64,000 bases of DNA, from contig CALXCH010000001.1 of the NCBI GenBank assembly GCA_944386735.1, forward strand, positions 2,218 through 66,217. Direction: 5' to 3'. Below are positions 4,591 through 50,372 of this stretch, piece by piece. Under the pieces are notes generated by a model. It ran no database searches and had not been told where the DNA came from. It saw only the letters and a list, made by a program, of their open reading frames with translations. The stretch's first letter is position 1, and each line of letters begins with the position of its first letter. The translations under genes were made by a program, and so were the position numbers. The DNA comes from an uncultured Clostridia bacterium. Lineage in GTDB: Bacteria; Bacillota; Clostridia; TANB77; CAG-508.

Positions 4591-5466
4591 ATGAAAGAAA
4601 GAGATTGTAAAATTGTTCAAGATTTATTACCTAACTATATTGAAAATTTAACAAATGAAGAAACAAATAAATATATAGAAGAACATTTAGATACTTGCAA
4701 AGATTGTAAAAAAATCTATGACAATATGAAAAAGGATTTTAATGTAGATAATAAAACTAAAGAAAAAAAGAAAGTTAAATTCTTAAAGAAATATAGGAAT
4801 AAATTAAGAATATTAGAAATTATTATAATAATTATCATAGTAATATTTATTGCAAATACAGGAAGAAAAGCATATATAATTTCAAATTTATCTGATAAAG
4901 CAAAAGAGTATGAAAATTCAAATAATTATCATGAAGTATCATATTCATTACAAGAAGGAATATTTAATAAATCTGAAATTTTTAGTATGGAAGGCAAAAA
5001 GAAATTAGTATATACGACAATTACAGATGAAGAAACTCAAATACTTACAATGAACCTTACTCAAATAGAAAATGAAAAATATGAAGGAAATATTTATTTT
5101 GATAATAGTTTAGGAAAAAATGTTGTTTTAGACCAAGAAGTTGGAGTAATGGTAGGTCCTCAAGATATTTTTAAAACTGAAAATTTAGGACAATTATTAG
5201 TATATTCAATTCCAACTTATGTAACAAGTACGAAATTTGATGGAATAGACAGTTATTATATATCAAACTTTCAAGGAGAAGGTGGAATGTATGTAAACAA
5301 AGAAACGGGACTTCCTATAAGTACTATGTCAAGTGAGATTGAATATGAGGAAGGAATAATGGGAAGGTCACCTACAACAGAATACAAATATGAATTTGGA
5401 ACAGTTACAGAAGAGGATTTTACAGAACCAGATATAAGTGAATATACAATTAAGGAAGGTATATAA
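4591..5466 (+). CDS. Anti-sigma factor, zinc-finger (HxxxCxxC) type with one TM and an extracytoplasmic domain
   Basis: Immediately follows the sigma gene (stop/start overlap region). N-terminal HLDTCKDCKK motif, a central TM segment, and GGAGG RBS before ATG 4591. Confidence 0.6.
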   Translation: MKERDCKIVQDLLPNYIENLTNEETNKYIEEHLDTCKDCKKIYDNMKKDFNVDNKTKEKKKVKFLKKYRNKLRILEIIIIIIIVIFIANTGRKAYIISNLSDKAKEYENSNNYHEVSYSLQEGIFNKSEIFSMEGKKKLVYTTITDEETQILTMNLTQIENEKYEGNIYFDNSLGKNVVLDQEVGVMVGPQDIFKTENLGQLLVYSIPTYVTSTKFDGIDSYYISNFQGEGGMYVNKETGLPISTMSSEIEYEEGIMGRSPTTEYKYEFGTVTEEDFTEPDISEYTIKEGI

Positions 5467-5581
5467 AAATATAAGGAAAGAGTAGAAATATTCTTTCCTT
5501 GTATTTTGGCTAAAAACTGGAAAAAAACTTTAAAATGTGTTATATTAGTATATGTAAATTAAAAGTAAAGGAAGACGAAAA

Positions 5582-6148
5582 ATGAAATTATTATTACATA
5601 CTTGTTGTGCACCTTGTAGTGTGTATTGCATTGATGAATTAAGAAGTGAAAATATAGAGCCAACTGTATATTGGTTTAATCCTAATATACATCCATATAT
5701 GGAATATAAAGCAAGGAGAGATTGCTTAAAAGAATATACTAAAAGTATAAATGTAAATGCTATTTTTGAAGAAAATTATGGACTAGATGATTTTTGTAAA
5801 AATGTTGTTAAATCTTTAGATACAAGATGTCAAGATTATTGTTATCCAGTTCGTCTAGAACAAACTGCAAAATATGCTAAAGAAAATGGTTTTGATACAA
5901 TTTCAACAACTCTTTTAGTTAGTCCATATCAAAAGCATGATATAATTAAAGATTTAGGAGAAGTAATTGCTAAAAAATATGGAATAGAATTTTTATATAG
6001 AGATTTTAGAGTAGGATTTAGAGAAGGACAAGCAAAAGCAAGAGAAATAGGTCTTTATATGCAAAAATATTGTGGTTGTATTTTTTCAGAAGAGGATAGA
6101 TATAGAAAAAAGATTGAAAAAGATAAGCAAAAGATATTAGTAAAATAA
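5582..6148 (+). CDS. queH: Epoxyqueuosine reductase QueH (DUF208)
   Basis: N-terminal HTCCAPCS motif and conserved Cys pattern. 188 aa. Confidence 0.8.
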   Translation: MKLLLHTCCAPCSVYCIDELRSENIEPTVYWFNPNIHPYMEYKARRDCLKEYTKSINVNAIFEENYGLDDFCKNVVKSLDTRCQDYCYPVRLEQTAKYAKENGFDTISTTLLVSPYQKHDIIKDLGEVIAKKYGIEFLYRDFRVGFREGQAKAREIGLYMQKYCGCIFSEEDRYRKKIEKDKQKILVK

Positions 6149-40726: not shown

Positions 40727-41585
40727 ATGAAAAAGTTAGTAGTTAGTAAAAAATATGATGGAAAAAAATTAAATAAGTTTTTGTTTTCTAATATATCTGG
40801 ATTATCAGAAGGTCTATTTTATAAAACTCTTAGAAAAAAAGATATAAAAATAAACAGAGAGCGTGTTAATTCTAATGTGATTGTAAATGAAGGAGACGAA
40901 GTATTAGTATATATATCAGATGAATTATTAAACTCTAAAGTTTTATTAGATGTAATATATGAAGATGAAAACATCTTAATTGTAAATAAGCCTTATAATT
41001 TAGAAGTAACAGGAGAGAACAGTTTAACTAGTATAATCCATGAAAAATATAAAGGAAATGATTTTTTACCAATGCCTTGTCATAGAATAGATAGAAATAC
41101 ACATGGGATGGTTTTATTTGCTAAAAATCAAAAAGCATTAGATATCCTTTTAAATAAATTTAAAAATCACGAAATAGAAAAACATTATTTAGCTTTGGTA
41201 TATGGTTGTCCAAAAGAAGAATATAAAATAGCAGAAGCTTATTTATTTAAAGACAATAAGAAATCTAAAGTATATATAAGTGATATTCCTAAAAAGGGAT
41301 ATAGAAAGATTATTACAATATATAGAGTATTAGAAAAAAGAAAAGATAATACATCTCTTTTAGATGTAGAAATAAAAACAGGAAGAACGCATCAAATAAG
41401 AGCTCATTTAGCTTTCTTAGGGCATCCAATAATAGGAGACCGGAAAATATGGGAAGAATGAAATAAATAAAAAGTTTGGCAAAAAGTATCAATGTTTGAA
41501 AAGCTATATATTAAAATTTAATTTTAAAGATAATAATGGTATTCTAGAGTATTTAAATGGAAAAACAATTATATTGAAAAAATAA
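40727..41585 (+). pseudogene. RluA-family 23S rRNA pseudouridine synthase interrupted by a 1-nt insertion in an A-run at 41444-41447
   Basis: The frame ends ...GHPIIGDRKIWEE*. The -1 frame continues KYGKNEINKKFGKKYQCLKSYILKFNFKDNNGILEYLNGKTIILKK*, the normal RluA C-terminus. Catalytic HRIDRNTHG motif is present. Confidence 0.7.
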
Positions 41586-41657: not shown

Positions 41658-42761
41658 TTATAAAGTAATTTTTTGATTATCTTTTTTGGCTTTAGATGGA
41701 GAAGCTTTTTTTCTTGCATCTAAAATTGCAATATTAATGTACATTTGAAAATTATCAGTATATATATGATTATGTATAAAGTCATTTACAGTTTTATATT
41801 CTTTATCAGTAAAGCAGATTATTAAGTAAAAAGCGTTCTTACATCCACTATATCTAATATAATCACATAATTGATTTTCATATCCTGCTTTTAAATATGA
41901 GCTACTAGCCTTTTTGACTTCTATTAAGATTTTTTCATCTTTTTTATTACTTCTAAATAATTTAAAATCAACTTGTCCATTTTTAACTAAAACTTCTCTA
42001 GAAATATCTACTTCTTTTCCAATAAAATATGCATCCATGATATTTTCTATAATTACATGAATTTTCTTTTCGGTTACTGGTTGTTTATTTTCCCAAAATA
42101 GTTCTGCTAAACTTCCACTATTAATTCGTTGCTGTAAATAAGAAAATAATTCGCTGATTTCTCCTGTTAATGTAATGTGGTTGCTTTTGAATTGCTTTTG
42201 AATATCTATTGGTAAAATTTCAAAGTAATAATCCAAATTAATTCCCATTGTTTTAGCTATAATAGGCATATTAGCTTTTTGTTCATTATATAAATAAGGA
42301 AGTTCTATAAAATCAATATCATCATAAATATCTTCACAAATATAACTTGGGTTATAATAGTATCCTTCGAGTATATCAATTGGAAAGTCATCATCATCCA
42401 TTTCTTTTTTATCTATCTCGACATATTTTTGTATAGTATCTATTAATTCTTTGTCATAAAATACTTTTTTAAAATCTTCTTTCATATCATTTTTTAAATT
42501 TTGCATTTCCATTAAAAAATAATATAATGCTACTTCGTGAAAAGCTGTAAGTTCGTGCCAAAATTCATCACTTGTCCAAGCGTATAAATCTTTAAATACT
42601 TCTAGACATTTTTGATATTGTTCTCTAAATAAATATTTAGGCATATAATCTTCTATCATATCTCCAATATCAATTTCTGGATCTCCAAAGATTTCTCCTT
42701 CTAAATAATTATGTATTATTTTGCAGTATACTATACTTCTGGGTGTATTAAGATTTATCAT
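41658..42761 (-). CDS. Hypothetical 367-aa protein with a C-terminal PD-(D/E)xK-like nuclease motif (D...ILIEVKK), adjacent to tRNA-Gly
   Basis: GQVDFKLF ... EKILIEVKK pattern. No recognizable N-terminal domain. Terminator hairpin downstream. Confidence 0.4.
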   Translation of the reverse strand: MINLNTPRSIVYCKIIHNYLEGEIFGDPEIDIGDMIEDYMPKYLFREQYQKCLEVFKDLYAWTSDEFWHELTAFHEVALYYFLMEMQNLKNDMKEDFKKVFYDKELIDTIQKYVEIDKKEMDDDDFPIDILEGYYYNPSYICEDIYDDIDFIELPYLYNEQKANMPIIAKTMGINLDYYFEILPIDIQKQFKSNHITLTGEISELFSYLQQRINSGSLAELFWENKQPVTEKKIHVIIENIMDAYFIGKEVDISREVLVKNGQVDFKLFRSNKKDEKILIEVKKASSSYLKAGYENQLCDYIRYSGCKNAFYLIICFTDKEYKTVNDFIHNHIYTDNFQMYINIAILDARKKASPSKAKKDNQKITL

Positions 42762-42774
42762 TTTTTACCTCACT

Positions 42775-42849
<75 letters not shown>

Positions 42850-43695: not shown

Positions 43696-43783
43696 TAATC
43701 ATCACCAATAAAAAATATTACAAAAATATGAAAATATTACAATTATTGCTCAAATTAATTATAAAAAATAACTATTGTTATTG

Positions 43784-43812
43784 TTGATAAAATCTTTAAA
43801 ATATAGTATAAT
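43784..43812 (+). promoter_or_regulatory. ssrA promoter TTGATA-17 nt-TATAAT
   Basis: Consensus-like -35/-10 about 10 nt upstream of the tmRNA 5' end. Confidence 0.6.
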
Positions 43813-43821
43813 AGATAAGAC

Positions 43822-44179
43822 ATGGGGATGAAATGGTTTCGACATAATACTAGAAGTATAGATTGCAAGTAGTGGATGGTCGCTTTGGCCACTTAAAAAA
43901 AGCGAAAGTAAATATAAACGCTGATAACGAAGAATTAGCATTAGCTGCCTAAGTTGCGGCTACGCTTTACTAAAAAGTCCCACCTTTTTAGATAAAGTGT
44001 TATAACAGTGGGAAACGAAGCTACTTTTGCTTTTAAAGTAGTAGGTATTTTAAAAAGCTATATTTTAATAAAACCTGTTTGTTGGTGTTATTAAAATGAA
44101 TAAAATAAACAAACTAAACTTGTAGATATCTATGTGGAAGGTATTGTGGACAGGAGTTCGACTCTCCTCATCTCCACCA
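43822..44179 (+). ncRNA. ssrA: tmRNA (SsrA), tag reading frame GCT GAT AAC GAA GAA TTA GCA TTA GCT GCC TAA (ADNEELALAA)
   Basis: 5' GGGGATG and 3' GGACAGGAGTTCGACTCTCCTCATCTCCACCA tRNA-like ends. Internal tag ORF at 43926-43958. Terminator hairpin follows. Confidence 0.9.
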
Positions 44180-44383
44180 ATTAGGACACGAAATTAACCT
44201 TTTTGTGTCTTTTTATTTTTTGTAATTTATTAAAATAAAAAAATATAGTGAATTAATGTTAATAACTAAAGAAAATTGGTTAAAAATTGTACTTAAAGAG
44301 GCTTTTTGTTGAAAGTTATGTAAAATTCTGATATAATAAGAAAGTATTATACATAGGCTTAGCCATAAGAGAAGGGAAAAATC

Positions 44384-45139
44384 ATGGCTACTATTGTTCA
44401 CACTGACGAAGACTTTGCAAAAACTTATGTTTTTCGAACTCAAGATGAGCACGTTTTGTATATTAGCGATTTTAAGGAAGGAGTTGCTACAGTAGAATTA
44501 ACAGATGACCATACACTTGATTCTTTGGCAAGAGTAATTTTCGGCTGTTTTTCAAAAAAATCAAATTTTGCTGAAGCGATTCTTAAAGCTTATCATTGTG
44601 ATGAAAATGTGAGATTTAAGGGATTTGCAATTAATATTAACGGAAAATTGGTAAATATTACTAAGGAAGACTGTGACATTGATGAAATTATCGAATTGAT
44701 AAAGCAAGCTGAGAAGGAAACTCAAGAAGAAACAATGGCAAATTCATTTGGACAGCTTGTGGAATTTTTTACAGGAATTCCAAAAGAAGTAAGTTATGTG
44801 AGAGCAATTGTTAAAATTGAGTTTAAAGATGAAGCATCTGAAAAATCATGGAATGAATGGTTTGAAAGTGCTGAGAGCGAAGAACAAAATGAAATTGTTA
44901 GCTTTGGAGATTTGCTAGCTAGGTATTCACAAAGTGCAATGAAAGATGGATATCCTTTTGAAACTGCTGTAACTAGGTCATATCTGAAACTTTCTGCAAT
45001 GGATGAAAATCTAGATGATGCAATGAAACAATATGCAATTGATAAGCTGATTGAATGTTGGAAATATGGTAAAGAACTGAAGGAATGGAATGATGGTAGA
45101 ACCAAGTCTGACCTGGAAAATCTGATTGATGAAATCTAG
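44384..45139 (+). CDS. Acidic 251-aa protein, uncharacterized family, paralog 1 of 3 in tandem
   Basis: Own promoter TTGAAA-17-TATAAT, RBS, and terminator CCTCCTTTAAAGGAGG. N-terminal VHTDEDF...GVATVE...GCFSKKSNF...AYHCDEN is shared with the paralogs. Confidence 0.6.
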   Translation: MATIVHTDEDFAKTYVFRTQDEHVLYISDFKEGVATVELTDDHTLDSLARVIFGCFSKKSNFAEAILKAYHCDENVRFKGFAININGKLVNITKEDCDIDEIIELIKQAEKETQEETMANSFGQLVEFFTGIPKEVSYVRAIVKIEFKDEASEKSWNEWFESAESEEQNEIVSFGDLLARYSQSAMKDGYPFETAVTRSYLKLSAMDENLDDAMKQYAIDKLIECWKYGKELKEWNDGRTKSDLENLIDEI

Positions 45140-45308
45140 TGGCTATACCGTAAAAGCTAAATAGCTTTTAGTAAAAAGAAAATAGTTTTCTTTACCTCCT
45201 TTAAAGGAGGTTTCTTTTTATTCTACATAACTATTTGAATTGTTATATAATTGTGGTATAATAAATGAGTATTAAAGTAATAGTTAGTATATAGAAAGGA
45301 AGAGTATT

Positions 45309-46064
45309 ATGATTACATTTGTACATACTGACGAGGAATTTGTGAAGATGTACAAGTTTCGGACACAGAACAATCATGTTGTGCTTGTAAAAGAATTTGA
45401 AAATGGAGTTGCAACAATTGAACCAACATGGGATTACAAAAATTTAGATGAGTTTATTGAAGTTATTTCAGGTTGCCTTAATGGAAAATCTAATTTTAAA
45501 AAAGAGCTTATGAAAGCCTATGGCCATGATGAAAATTCTGAACTTAAGGGAATTAATATTATCATATTAGGTATCAATGTGTTTATTTCGCCTGAAAAGA
45601 AGAACAAAGATGAAATTCAAGCTATTATTGATTCAAGTATGATAAAACATTTTGAAAGAAACTTACGAGAAGTAATCGATAGTTCATTCCATTGTCGGTA
45701 TTGTGATTATATAACTAATATTGTCTATAGTACGGAAATTGAATTTGTAAGTAAAGAGGCAGAAAGAAAGTGGAGAAAGAAGACTGATAAGTTAAGAGAA
45801 ACAGAAACAGGATTCTTTATAGTAGACTATGCAGACAACTTAGCTAAATATATTCAGTATCTTGTTGAGGATATGGATAAAAAGTTTCCTACAGTAATAG
45901 ATGAAGCAATGGAAGACATTGATTCATTGACGATGGCAGAAGGTGACACTATACTAGAAGCAATCTATTTGCTTGTTGATACTTGGAAATATGGAGATGA
46001 ACTTATAAAATGGAATAGAAAAGTAATCGATTTTCAAATGCAAAGTATCATAGATGACCTCTAA
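45309..46064 (+). CDS. Acidic 251-aa protein, paralog 2 of 3
   Basis: VHTDEEF...GVATIE...GCLNGKSNF...AYGHDEN, C-terminal WKYGDELIKWN. Own promoter and terminator CCTCTAGAAATAGAGG. Confidence 0.6.
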   Translation: MITFVHTDEEFVKMYKFRTQNNHVVLVKEFENGVATIEPTWDYKNLDEFIEVISGCLNGKSNFKKELMKAYGHDENSELKGINIIILGINVFISPEKKNKDEIQAIIDSSMIKHFERNLREVIDSSFHCRYCDYITNIVYSTEIEFVSKEAERKWRKKTDKLRETETGFFIVDYADNLAKYIQYLVEDMDKKFPTVIDEAMEDIDSLTMAEGDTILEAIYLLVDTWKYGDELIKWNRKVIDFQMQSIIDDL

Positions 46065-46259
46065 CTTTGCTAACTAATAACAAATGGTTAAATAACCATT
46101 AAGCTAAAAAGAAAAAATTTCTTTTCCTCTAGAAATAGAGGTTTCTTTTTTTATTTTTTATTTTTGACAAAAATTAAGTATTAATTGACTTTTATGTAAA
46201 TGGAATATATAATAACAATATGTAATTGTAAAATCATTTTACTTAGAGAAAGGAATATC

Positions 46260-47027
46260 ATGAAAACCATCATCAAAAAAGTAAATAAAATTTTTTCTTT
46301 TAAAGACGAGAAAGGATATGAAGTCCTTGTAGATGGATTTAAAGATGGATTTGCAACAATCCGGATTCCAATTACTGTTACTAGATATGAGGATAAAATC
46401 TCTGCTTGCATAGTAGACGGAAATAATCTTATTAGCTTTTTATCAGGCTGTTTTGGCAAAGAGTCTAATTTCGTAAAAATGCTGTTTGAAACATATGAAT
46501 GTGATTCAACTGCTGAATTTCTTGGATTTAAGTTAAAGGCAGGAGATATGTCATGCACAGTAACTAGGGAAAATTCAGCTTTTTACAGCATTAAAGAAAT
46601 CATAGAAAATTTCCTTGGCATATATGCTGAAGCAGAAGCAGAAAAAATTAACAAGCGAACAGATGAGTATAATAAAGAAAGGGAAGATTTGGATAATCTT
46701 CTCGATAGTCTAGATATAGCTTTTAAGAGTGATCAAGCAGAAGATAAATATATAGAAGAAGCTGAAAGGTTAGATGAAAACTTCTTGGGATATGGACAAG
46801 ATTTTGTTGCACATGTTCAGTACCTTGTGGAACAAGAAGGCTACAATATTTCTGATGCTGTTAATGAGACCTATAGAAGGTTTGATTCAATCAGTTTCAA
46901 TATTGAAGAAGGATTAGCATCAATACAATTCATTTGTAGGTTCTGCCTCTATGGAGATGAGATTTATGAAAGTTATTTTAATATTTGGATGAAGATGTAT
47001 AACGATGAGCTAAATAACTATCTCTAA
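46260..47027 (+). CDS. Acidic 255-aa protein, paralog 3 of 3 (more diverged)
   Basis: GFATIRIP...SGCFGKESNF...TYECDSTAEFLGF, C-terminal LYGDEIYESYFNIW. Promoter TTGACT-17-TATAAT. Terminator CCCTCTAGAAATAGAGGG. Confidence 0.55.
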   Translation: MKTIIKKVNKIFSFKDEKGYEVLVDGFKDGFATIRIPITVTRYEDKISACIVDGNNLISFLSGCFGKESNFVKMLFETYECDSTAEFLGFKLKAGDMSCTVTRENSAFYSIKEIIENFLGIYAEAEAEKINKRTDEYNKEREDLDNLLDSLDIAFKSDQAEDKYIEEAERLDENFLGYGQDFVAHVQYLVEQEGYNISDAVNETYRRFDSISFNIEEGLASIQFICRFCLYGDEIYESYFNIWMKMYNDELNNYL

Positions 47028-47183
47028 GAATGATTAACGAGAGTGTTAAATAACCTCTTAAAAAAGATTTTATCTTTCCCTCTAGAAATAGAGGGTTCTT
47101 TTTATTTTTTAGATTTGTAATAATAGAATTTTCAGTTGAATAAAATAAAATGTGAACATTTTGTGAAAAATTAAAAATAGGTA

Positions 47184-47212
47184 TTGACAATTAGCAAAAT
47201 AGGGTATACAGT
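47184..47212 (+). promoter_or_regulatory. groESL promoter (TTGACA -35 with TATACA/TACAGT -10)
   Basis: Consensus -35 immediately upstream of CIRCE. Confidence 0.5.
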
Positions 47213-47213
47213 A

Positions 47214-47240
47214 TTAGCAGTCAATAAGATAGAGTGCTAA
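47214..47240 (+). promoter_or_regulatory. CIRCE operator (HrcA binding site) TTAGCAGTC-N9-GAGTGCTAA
   Basis: Matches the CIRCE consensus TTAGCACTC-N9-GAGTGCTAA with one mismatch, 21 nt upstream of groES. Confidence 0.85.
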
Positions 47241-47543
<303 letters not shown>

Positions 47544-49264: not shown

Positions 49265-50143
49265 TTATAACCAATTTTTAATTACATCTTCAGAAACATT
49301 CATATTATTATAACCAATCCCAATTTTTCTATCAGGTTTTTTATCTCCGTGACAGTCAGTACCAGCGGACATAAACATATTATTTTGTTTGCAGTAATTT
49401 TCTAAAGTCTTTATTTGGGTAGAACTAAAACCAGAGTAATAAACTTCTACACCATCAATTATATTGTTATTTCTTAAATTATCTAAAAATTCAATGTAAT
49501 TATCTAATGGATACAAGTATAAATGTGCTATAAAAACTTTTCCACCATATTTTCTAATTTTATTTGAAACTTCTTTTGCAGATGGATATTGTTTAGAAAA
49601 ATTTCTATATAATATAAAATTAGGATTACAAGTAGATTTCCTAAAAATAATACCACTATTATTCCACTCTTCATCAGTAAAGAATTTTTTGTTTTCTTCA
49701 TATTTGGTAATATCATCATAAATAATTTTTACAGGAAATTTTTGTACTTCATTATATTGTAAATTAGGAGTTGTTTTTATATTATTTTTCTTACATAAGT
49801 CTAAAAATTCTTGAAATTCTTTTTTATATCCATTAATTTCATTGTTTTTTGTATATGTTTTATCTATCCAGTCTTGTAATTTAAAGGGGTCAAAACCATA
49901 TCCTAAAAGTTCGATTTTAACACTATCAAAAACACAATTAAATTCTCCTCCAGTTACAATTCTTCCAGAAAAGTATTTTTTTACATCAATATCTTTTAAC
50001 TTTATATGTGGAAGAGATGTGTCATGGTCTGTAATTGCTAAAGTTGTAACATTATTTTTTGCAGCATTAGATAGCAGTTCTTCGATTGTCCATGTACCAT
50101 CTGAAAATATTGTATGTGTATGTAAATCTACCATTTTTATCAC
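49265..50143 (-). CDS. PHP-domain phosphoesterase
   Basis: N-terminal DLHTHTIFSDG ... ITDHDT PHP motifs. 292 aa. Confidence 0.65.
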   Translation of the reverse strand: MIKMVDLHTHTIFSDGTWTIEELLSNAAKNNVTTLAITDHDTSLPHIKLKDIDVKKYFSGRIVTGGEFNCVFDSVKIELLGYGFDPFKLQDWIDKTYTKNNEINGYKKEFQEFLDLCKKNNIKTTPNLQYNEVQKFPVKIIYDDITKYEENKKFFTDEEWNNSGIIFRKSTCNPNFILYRNFSKQYPSAKEVSNKIRKYGGKVFIAHLYLYPLDNYIEFLDNLRNNNIIDGVEVYYSGFSSTQIKTLENYCKQNNMFMSAGTDCHGDKKPDRKIGIGYNNMNVSEDVIKNWL

Positions 50144-50296
50144 CTATTTTATTTTAAAAATTTTTTTAAGTATATATTTTTTTATTATTTTTGTCCATTG
50201 TATAAAAAAATTAAATAAAATTTTATACAAAAATAAATATTTTTAATTGTTGATTTTTTCTGTTAGTTAAGGTATAATAAGTCTTGTATTACTTAT

Positions 50297-50372
50297 GCCA
50301 AAATAGCTCAGTTGGTAGAGCAACGGATTCGTAACCCGGAGGTCAGCAGTTCGATTCTGCTTTTTGGCACCA
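50297..50372 (+). tRNA. tRNA, most likely Thr (anticodon CGU), 76 nt with encoded CCA
   Basis: GCCAAAATAGCTCAGTTGGTAGAGCAACGGATTCGTAACCCGGAGGTCAGCAGTTCGATTCTGCTTTTTGGCACCA. Acceptor, D and T arms are perfect. The anticodon stem has only 3 WC pairs. Has its own promoter and terminator. Confidence 0.65.

Follow-up and report, generated by a model that had tools for sequence, protein, structure and literature searches.

We analysed an array of three paralogous genes, P1, P2 and P3, in a 64,000-nucleotide (nt) stretch of DNA from an uncultured Clostridia bacterium (contig CALXCH010000001.1; hereafter the window). The three genes are co-oriented on the + strand and lie between ssrA, the gene for transfer-messenger RNA (tmRNA), and groES. 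An earlier note, made from the sequence alone, had described them as independently transcribed, strongly diverged tandem paralogs, inserted right after ssrA, a classic integration site of islands, and had likened them to orphan immunity arrays, to anti-defence genes or to DNA-mimic cassettes. The description of the genes was largely borne out, with their low identity and their own predicted promoters and terminators; the affinity to anti-defence proteins is supported because the C-terminal domain of these proteins belongs to Tad4, a phage anti-Thoeris family. In a clade of uncultured Clostridia, this locus forms a small variable slot of the core chromosome, with one to three self-contained cassettes.

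Two-domain acidic proteins with a Tad4-like C-terminal half

P1 and P2 share 36% identity, P1 and P3 24–31%. In tblastn searches (measured on the near-identical contig L001), P1 matched P2 with an E-value (E) of 4e-30 and P3 with an E of 2e-10, and the homology of P3 to P1 and P2 spans the whole protein. The three genes are thus paralogs of 251, 251 and 255 amino acids (aa), as proposed in the earlier note. An N-terminal GCF...SNF block is common to all three proteins. The C-terminal motif WKYG(D/K)EL..WN, which had also been ascribed to all three, is present in P1 and P2; P3 has CLYGDEIYESY instead. The proteins are acidic, with an aspartate plus glutamate content of 19.1–20.7%, close to the 20% noted before, and an isoelectric point (pI) of 4.5–4.8. 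These values fall in the top decile compared with the 43 other proteins of the window (median 15.1%, maximum 20.2% aspartate plus glutamate) and are not extreme.

The C-terminal region of about 100 aa of P1 and P2 matched the Pfam family PF25186 (Type I Thoeris inhibitor Tad4) above its cut-off of 25 bits (Table 1). P3 had no Pfam match; it was caught by profile A5, which was built only from stand-alone Tad4-like proteins and which matched P2 and P1 as well. Tad4 was matched by 73 of 148 family representatives (best E 1.4e-35) and the phage family phrog_9822 by 65 of the 148. The PF25186 tag is already carried by these proteins in the public database. Since the C-terminal family is known and the tag is public, half of each protein belongs to a curated family and the array is not the wholly undescribed system that had been suggested. 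In our literature search, no description was found of a fusion of Tad4 with this unannotated and elsewhere stand-alone domain, of self-contained tandem cassettes, of a location in core-genome slots of Clostridia instead of phages, or of the hot-spot dynamics reported below.

Tad4 was reportedly described by Yirmiya and colleagues, in Cell in 2025, as a phage inhibitor of ThsB of type I Thoeris. The reported target of this phage protein, ThsB, is the TIR protein of the type I Thoeris system; Tad3 to Tad6 are unrelated phage proteins that bind ThsB, with a flexible loop that enters the active site (PMC13402655; bioRxiv 10.64898/2026.01.28.702374; bioRxiv 10.1101/2025.06.06.658234, supplement, file 9 for Tad4). 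The flexible loop of Tad4 is reported to block the active site that processes nicotinamide adenine dinucleotide (NAD+) (PMC13402655). Tad4 is also reported to inhibit related TIR immunity in eukaryotes. In the literature covered, Tad4 appears solely as a small protein that phages use against Thoeris.

AlphaFold 2 (AF2) models of P1 and P3 were confident, as judged by the predicted local distance difference test (pLDDT; Table 1). In both models a small alpha/beta N-terminal domain (about aa 1–95 in P1) is followed by a connector helix of 30–40 residues (aa 99–130 in P1) and by a five-helix C-terminal domain, which is the Tad4 domain (about aa 150–250 in P1). The N-terminal domain of P3 has an extra beta-hairpin compared with that of P1. 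Within the Tad4 domain, variability is greatest and model confidence lowest in the loop that joins helices 3 and 4 (about aa 205–213 in P1 and 211–217 in P3), which also tolerates insertions and deletions; at aa 211–220 of P3 the column entropy is 2.08, the highest value, and pLDDT dips to 67. Fold searches of the PDB gave no relative of the N-terminal or the C-terminal domain, and sequence searches of the PDB with P1, P2 and profiles A4 and A5 gave none either. The structural check proposed in the earlier note thus produced good models and, from the viral library BFVD, best fold matches that include protein A0A2D1GPV5 of Mycobacterium phage Kumao (probability 1.0). By tblastn, Kumao gp10, which may be the same protein, is a Tad4-domain homolog.

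For the N-terminal region of about 110 aa, scans of the 148 representatives gave no match in Pfam or PHROG. This region also exists alone, as proteins of about 115 aa (range about 110–140 aa), and profile A4, built only from such stand-alone proteins of other lineages, recognised P1, P2 and P3 (Table 1). Scans of P1–P3 with NCBIfam and PADLOC gave nothing meaningful, and no match to a housekeeping domain, which would have spoken against the earlier proposal, was found. The family is rare: an exhaustive hidden Markov model search of 1.84 billion cluster representatives gave only 220 relatives at E <= 1e-3. They have five architectures, N-terminal plus C-terminal domain (220–290 aa), N-terminal domain alone (about 110–140 aa), C-terminal domain alone (about 100–160 aa), N-C-N-C (protein P0080) and N-C-C (protein P0077).

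Outside Clostridia the C-terminal domain is found mainly in viruses. Stand-alone Tad4-like genes are present in 32 cultured phage records, of which 29 are Bacillus phages, mostly with genomes of about 150–165 kb, and Tad4-like relatives are present in 125 IMG/VR loci. Eighty of these viral loci were fetched for analysis of their context: in all 80 the Tad4-like gene is single and encodes about 110–120 aa, and no open reading frame (ORF) for the N-terminal domain lies within 6 kb on either side. Searches by tblastn with P1 and with P0074, a protein made of the N-terminal domain alone, gave no match in 50,697 phage records, nor did scans of IMG/VR with the same two proteins, and a scan of JGI metagenomes with the alignment of type-C proteins (the P3 type) gave none. 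The fusion protein of Clostridia contig L019 matches phages through its C-terminal domain only (tblastn), and the plasmid collection contained a single C-terminal domain match, on a 185-kb Clostridium baratii plasmid.

P1–P3 resemble Tad4 in keeping the signatures YA..WAKYMQYL and WKYGDEL..W (CLYGDEI in P3) and in their helical bundle with a variable inter-helix loop. They differ from the viral stand-alone proteins in being two-domain proteins of 251–255 aa, in which the Tad4 domain sits behind an N-terminal domain of about 110 aa and a long helix, and in their location, in a bacterial chromosome among housekeeping genes and in arrays of one to three copies, whereas the viral genes are single. 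Two Tad4-family ORFs do lie side by side in Bacillus phage Bp8p-C (L027, 2061–2803, gp074-gp073 region), a likeness to the array; the upstream ORF, which scores 91 bits against PF25186, is annotated only as gp074 of 65 aa, probably a mis-annotation. At the helix 3-4 loop, the motif D..G(I/V)TGFMY is common to the Tad4-like proteins of phages and to the L019 fusion, but P1–P3 do not have it; they may therefore have another target, or bind in another way, than canonical Tad4.

Three expression cassettes between ssrA and groES

A near-consensus promoter precedes every gene, and a hairpin terminator with a T-run comes after it (Table 1), as had been proposed from the sequence. The distance from the end of the -10 box to the ATG is exactly 47 nt in all three cassettes (leaders 44338–44383, 45263–45308 and 46214–46259), and it is 43–47 nt in the orthologous cassettes of contigs L026 and L008. 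The promoters of P1–P3 are among the best-scoring promoter-like sites of the region. Such sites are not enriched overall in this AT-rich DNA (23 found, 19.5 +/- 4.2 in shuffled sequences), so that the case for these promoters rests on their position and on their conservation in those orthologous cassettes: the cassette 1 type of promoter also precedes the type-A genes of L026 and L008, and the TTGACT promoter of cassette 3 also precedes their type-C genes. The promoters are conserved and travel with the cassette subtype. Hairpin terminators are enriched (4 found, 0.9 +/- 0.9 expected). The three cassette terminators belong to a 67-nt repeat present in three copies, 931 and 953 nt apart; the presence of each gene's hairpin in this repeat indicates that the duplicated unit is the whole expression cassette.

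For P3, an alternative start at 46200 would give a protein of 275 aa. This start lies inside the predicted promoter of cassette 3, and the ATG at 46260 is preceded by a ribosome-binding site, GAAAGGAA; the 255-aa form is therefore preferred. No RNA element was detected in the leaders and spacers by an Rfam scan. A sub-threshold match to sroB at 46081–46151 (34 bits, E 0.06; the gathering score is 44) coincides in part with the terminator of cassette 2 and most likely reflects nothing but the hairpin.

Table 1. Features of the array and of its two boundaries, in window coordinates. A4 and A5 are the N-terminal and Tad4-like domain profiles described in the text; promoter scores are out of 12.
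Feature	Position	Strand	Evidence
ssrA (tmRNA), upstream boundary; tag ADNEELALAA	43824..44179	+	ARAGORN; Rfam RF00023, 191.7 bits
ssrA terminator hairpin, then T-run	44183..44211	+	terminator scan
Cassette 1 promoter, TTGAAA-17-TATAAT, extended TG	44309..44337	+	promoter scan, score 11/12
P1 (type A), 251 aa	44384..45139	+	ORF; AF2 pLDDT 84.4; A4 E 4e-30; A5 E 2e-20
P1 match to PF25186 Tad4, aa 152-241	44837..45106	+	Pfam, 35.0 bits (cut-off 25), E 2e-8
Cassette 1 terminator hairpin ACCTCCTTTAAAGGAGGT, then T-run; in 67-nt repeat D1	45194..45211	+	terminator scan, repeat search
Cassette 2 promoter, TTGAAT-16-TATAAT, extended TG	45235..45262	+	promoter scan, score 10/12
P2 (type B), 251 aa, two domains as in P1	45309..46064	+	ORF; A4 E 5e-27; A5 E 7e-26
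P2 match to PF25186 Tad4, aa 152-239	45762..46025	+	Pfam, 37.3 bits (cut-off 25), E 3.7e-9
Cassette 2 terminator hairpin CCTCTAGAAATAGAGG, then T-run	46126..46141	+	terminator scan, repeat search
Cassette 3 promoter, TTGACT-17-TATAAT	46185..46213	+	promoter scan, score 11/12
P3 (type C), 255 aa, P1-like architecture, divergent Tad4-like C-terminal domain	46260..47027	+	ORF; AF2 pLDDT 86.7; A4 E 3e-17; A5 E 9e-11
Cassette 3 terminator hairpin CCCTCTAGAAATAGAGGG, then T-run	47078..47095	+	terminator scan, repeat search
groES promoter (TTGACA-17-TACAGT) and CIRCE-like inverted repeat TTAGCAGTC-N9-GAGTGCTAA; downstream boundary of the slot	47184..47239	+	promoter scan; sequence read directly

The array begins immediately downstream of the tmRNA gene, as stated in the earlier note, with 205 nt between the 3' end of ssrA and the start of P1. 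The inverted repeat upstream of groES resembles CIRCE (controlling inverted repeat of chaperone expression). Because groES (start 47262; groEL start 47586) has its own promoter and this CIRCE-like repeat, the cassettes lie outside the heat-shock operon. The array is surrounded by pda (polysaccharide deacetylase), ssrA, groESL and other housekeeping genes. The window as a whole has a GC content of about 28% and the housekeeping and sporulation gene content of a Clostridia-type Firmicute, including polA, ruvB, purB, tyrS, ftsY, murB, dpaA, bacA, spore genes and groESL.

A variable slot in the chromosome of uncultured Clostridia

In the collections searched, the fusion of the N-terminal and Tad4 domains was found only in chromosomal contexts of uncultured Clostridia, amid housekeeping genes. 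At the pda-ssrA-[array]-groES-groEL locus, the survey of relatives gave one cassette in contigs L003 and L004, two in L008 and L009 and three in the window, L001 and L002, so that copy number does vary between lineages as the earlier note had anticipated. The content varies as well (type C only in L003 and L004, types A and C in L008 and L009), and in L026 the order of the cassettes is A, C, B. The flanks are identical in every relative examined at this locus. In contigs L013–L015, which end before any groES, a three-copy array adjoins an inverted ssrA and therefore abuts its 5' side (in L013, ssrA lies at 365–718, on the strand opposite to the array). The tmRNA tag differs between lineages: it is ADREELALAA in L013, ADKEELALAA in L008 and ADNEELALAA in the window. 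A second clade of Clostridia (L019–L023 and L116) carries the family between cls (cardiolipin synthase) and dpaA, at about 8.7–10.4 kb in each locus. The content of this slot also varies: it contains the N-terminal domain alone, the fusion together with the N-terminal domain alone, or additional genes. Two additional genes in L116 (450 and 392 aa) had no Pfam or PADLOC match.

Divergence was measured between the window and L002, a contig of a metagenome-assembled genome, by the method of Nei and Gojobori. The flanking genes are close, with synonymous (dS) and nonsynonymous (dN) values of 0.27 and 0.011 for groEL (dN/dS 0.04) and of 0.11 and 0.023 for groES (dN/dS 0.21). The cassettes, though directly beside groES, share only 47–49% amino-acid identity, with saturated dS: 1.79 for the P2-type cassette (dN 0.43, dN/dS 0.24) and 1.06 for the P3-type cassette (dN 0.40, dN/dS 0.37). 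Judged by these values, the cassette alleles are far older than their flanks, which points to allele exchange or to birth-and-death turnover in a hot spot, not merely to fast amino-acid evolution. In close allele pairs (window and L024, 85–88% identity), dN/dS was 0.28–0.30, and such values indicate purifying selection and functional genes. Overall, dN/dS of the cassettes was 0.2–0.4, on the side of constraint, and ORFs and promoters remain intact at less than 50% amino-acid identity.

The locus was also searched for mobility genes. No tyrosine or serine integrase was found near ssrA, as already noted from the sequence, and the slot contains only the three cassettes, flanked by pda and groES. 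A repeat search of positions 43700–47300 revealed no direct repeat derived from the 3' end of ssrA, and there is no phage gene at the locus other than the Tad4-like genes. An island integrated at ssrA was therefore rejected, in view of the missing integrase and attachment-site repeat, of the same flanks in relatives and of the inversion of ssrA relative to the array in L013. The locus shares with islands and prophages that target ssrA the presence of variable DNA directly beside this gene; it differs from them in the lack of integrase and of a duplicated ssrA 3' end, in having the cassettes as sole content and, in one lineage, in the position of the array on the 5' side of an inverted ssrA. 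With the integrase-less hot spots of core genomes in which defence or counter-defence genes accumulate, it has in common conserved flanks, variable cargo, alleles far older than the flanks and a second variable slot 2 kb upstream; here the cargo is one protein family only, which resembles counter-defence rather than defence.

The upstream slot, some 2 kb from the array, lies between an rluA-like gene (40727–41461) and a tRNA-Gly gene (42776–42849). In the window it is occupied by a gene at 41658–42761 (- strand) that encodes 367 aa of unassigned function, with the public database tag PF28130 (DUF8371) and no match in our own Pfam scan; in L003, from a related lineage, the protein encoded in this slot (4879–5652) is of the NERD nuclease-related type and has a Top1 zinc ribbon. 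The cargo of this slot may be of the defence type. Downstream, a PHP-domain gene between groEL and tRNA-Thr is present in the window (49265–50372) and absent from L002 (4355–5860 compared), and past tRNA-Thr L002 contains a 440-aa ORF of the IS605 OrfB/TnpB type (PF01385 and a Cas12f1-like TNB domain).

Candidate roles of the array

The reading that we favour, to which we give a probability of about 0.45, is that the cassettes encode a diversifying set of protein inhibitors of TIR or other NAD+-processing proteins, with differing specificities. Each cassette (promoter, 47-nt leader, coding sequence and terminator) encodes an acidic two-domain protein of about 250 aa. P1–P3 would inhibit, in a stoichiometric manner, immune or toxin proteins that belong to the TIR type or otherwise process NAD+, and the specificity would differ from paralog to paralog, presumably set in large part by the helix 3-4 loop of the Tad4 domain. 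The mode proposed here, a small binder that occludes the NAD+ site, is the same as for Tad3, Tad5, Tad6, Tad7 and aRad1; these proteins have no sequence relationship to P1–P3, are phage-encoded and have been experimentally tested. The N-terminal domain might provide a second binding site, or serve in oligomerisation or regulation. Duplication, loss, reordering and allele exchange all appear to contribute to the turnover of the cassettes, a pattern to be expected of genes in a molecular arms race. The beneficiary might be the host, for which the proteins would be antidotes against incoming or self-encoded TIR or NADase activity; alternatively, the slot may be the fossil of a mobile element.

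Several observations weigh against this proposal. Binding and inhibition by P1–P3 are deduced from homology, and the 64-kb window contains no Thoeris system, no TIR, ThsA/ThsB or other defence gene. P3 falls below the Pfam threshold, yet its subtype is the only one present in every array of fully known content. In place of D..G(I/V)TGFMY, P1–P3 have unrelated acidic sequence with insertions and deletions; this non-conserved motif and the sub-threshold score of subtype C argue that the target need not be canonical ThsB. In more than 20 metagenome contigs of the species to which the window belongs, the array does not vary; variation was observed between lineages and not within this species. The high dS values could partly reflect a comparison of non-orthologous paralogs after differential loss. 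Finally, a chromosomal and apparently constitutive inhibitor of an immune enzyme is of no obvious benefit to its host.

A more general version of the proposal is that bacteria themselves maintain, at hot spots of their core genomes, diversifying sets of TIR/NADase inhibitors made of the phage-type Tad4 domain and of the new GCF...SNF module of about 110 aa. Such arrays would form a host-side antidote or immunity layer against TIR-type or other NAD+-depleting effectors of competitors or mobile elements, or would restrain the cell's own Thoeris-like systems, and the N-terminal domain would be a second inhibitor or sensor module that also works alone. We regard this wider claim as doubtful, at clearly lower odds than inhibition by P1–P3 itself.

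Among the alternatives, the most probable, though still unlikely, is that P1–P3 are orphan immunity proteins of a polymorphic-toxin system (LXG, WXG or Rhs type), each paralog acting against a different competitor-delivered toxin, possibly an NAD+-degrading one. If the toxins degraded NAD+, this explanation would merge with the inhibitor proposal, and the reported inhibition of an NAD+-processing active site by Tad4-type domains (PMC13402655) is in keeping with it. The array has much in common with orphan immunity arrays: diverged tandem paralogs, copy number and order that vary between lineages, alleles much older than the flanks, and small, acidic, cytoplasmic products. It differs from them in the absence of cognate toxin or secretion genes nearby, since no LXG, WXG100, Rhs or CdiA-type toxin gene was found among the housekeeping neighbours or the 43 other window proteins. 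No immunity family of the Imm/SUKH/SuFu type was matched in Pfam, where P1–P3 and the 148 relatives gave Tad4 only, and each gene is an independent transcription unit with a strong promoter and a terminator rather than a member of a toxin operon.

Two further explanations are somewhat less probable still, and about equally so. The first is that the cassettes are fossil cargo of a phage, satellite or island once integrated beside ssrA, the Tad4-like genes being leftover anti-defence genes with no current role in the host. Elsewhere the Tad4 domain is overwhelmingly viral, the ssrA adjacency is suggestive, the cassettes carry their own expression signals, and phage Bp8p-C likewise has two adjacent Tad4-family ORFs. 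The missing integrase, ssrA-derived repeat and other phage genes are against it, as are the identical flanks across lineages and the inversion of ssrA relative to the array in one of them. Also against it, purifying selection maintains ORFs and promoters at less than 50% identity, the N-terminal domain is absent from the surroundings (6 kb on either side) of the 80 viral Tad4 genes and from the cultured phages searched by tblastn with P0074 and P1, and in another clade of Clostridia the family sits elsewhere among housekeeping genes, between cls and dpaA.

The second is that P1–P3 are regulatory or physiological host proteins apart from immunity, for instance linked to stress or sporulation, in which the Tad4-like bundle is a reused protein-binding fold. 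The constant chromosomal location, beside groESL here and beside dpaA in another clade, the invariance within the species, the non-conservation of the canonical loop motif and the position of P3 below the Pfam threshold would fit such a role. However, saturated dS beside flanks of 0.1–0.3, with variable copy number and order, is not normal for housekeeping factors, only 220 relatives were present among 1.84 billion cluster representatives, which makes the family very rare, and groES has its own promoter and CIRCE-like operator.

DNA-mimic anti-restriction proteins of the ArdA/Ocr type, suggested by the acidity and low pI of P1–P3, are highly improbable and were rejected, as this acidity is modest and only at the upper end of the range of window proteins, P1–P3 match neither ArdA nor Ocr by family or fold, and their homology suggests an inhibitor that binds proteins.

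Across the collections searched, the core chromosome of Clostridia carries a version of Tad4 that is fused, present in several copies and subject to rapid turnover. The new domain family of about 110 aa, with its stand-alone members, is a candidate counter-defence or regulatory module. If P1–P3 did not inhibit TIR or NADase enzymes, the Pfam label Tad4 on bacterial proteins would not imply an anti-Thoeris function. If they do inhibit such enzymes, cells and not only phages would deploy such inhibitors, which would bear on the control of NAD+-based immunity and of NADase toxins, and the locus would be a natural panel of diverged inhibitors for the mapping of specificity.

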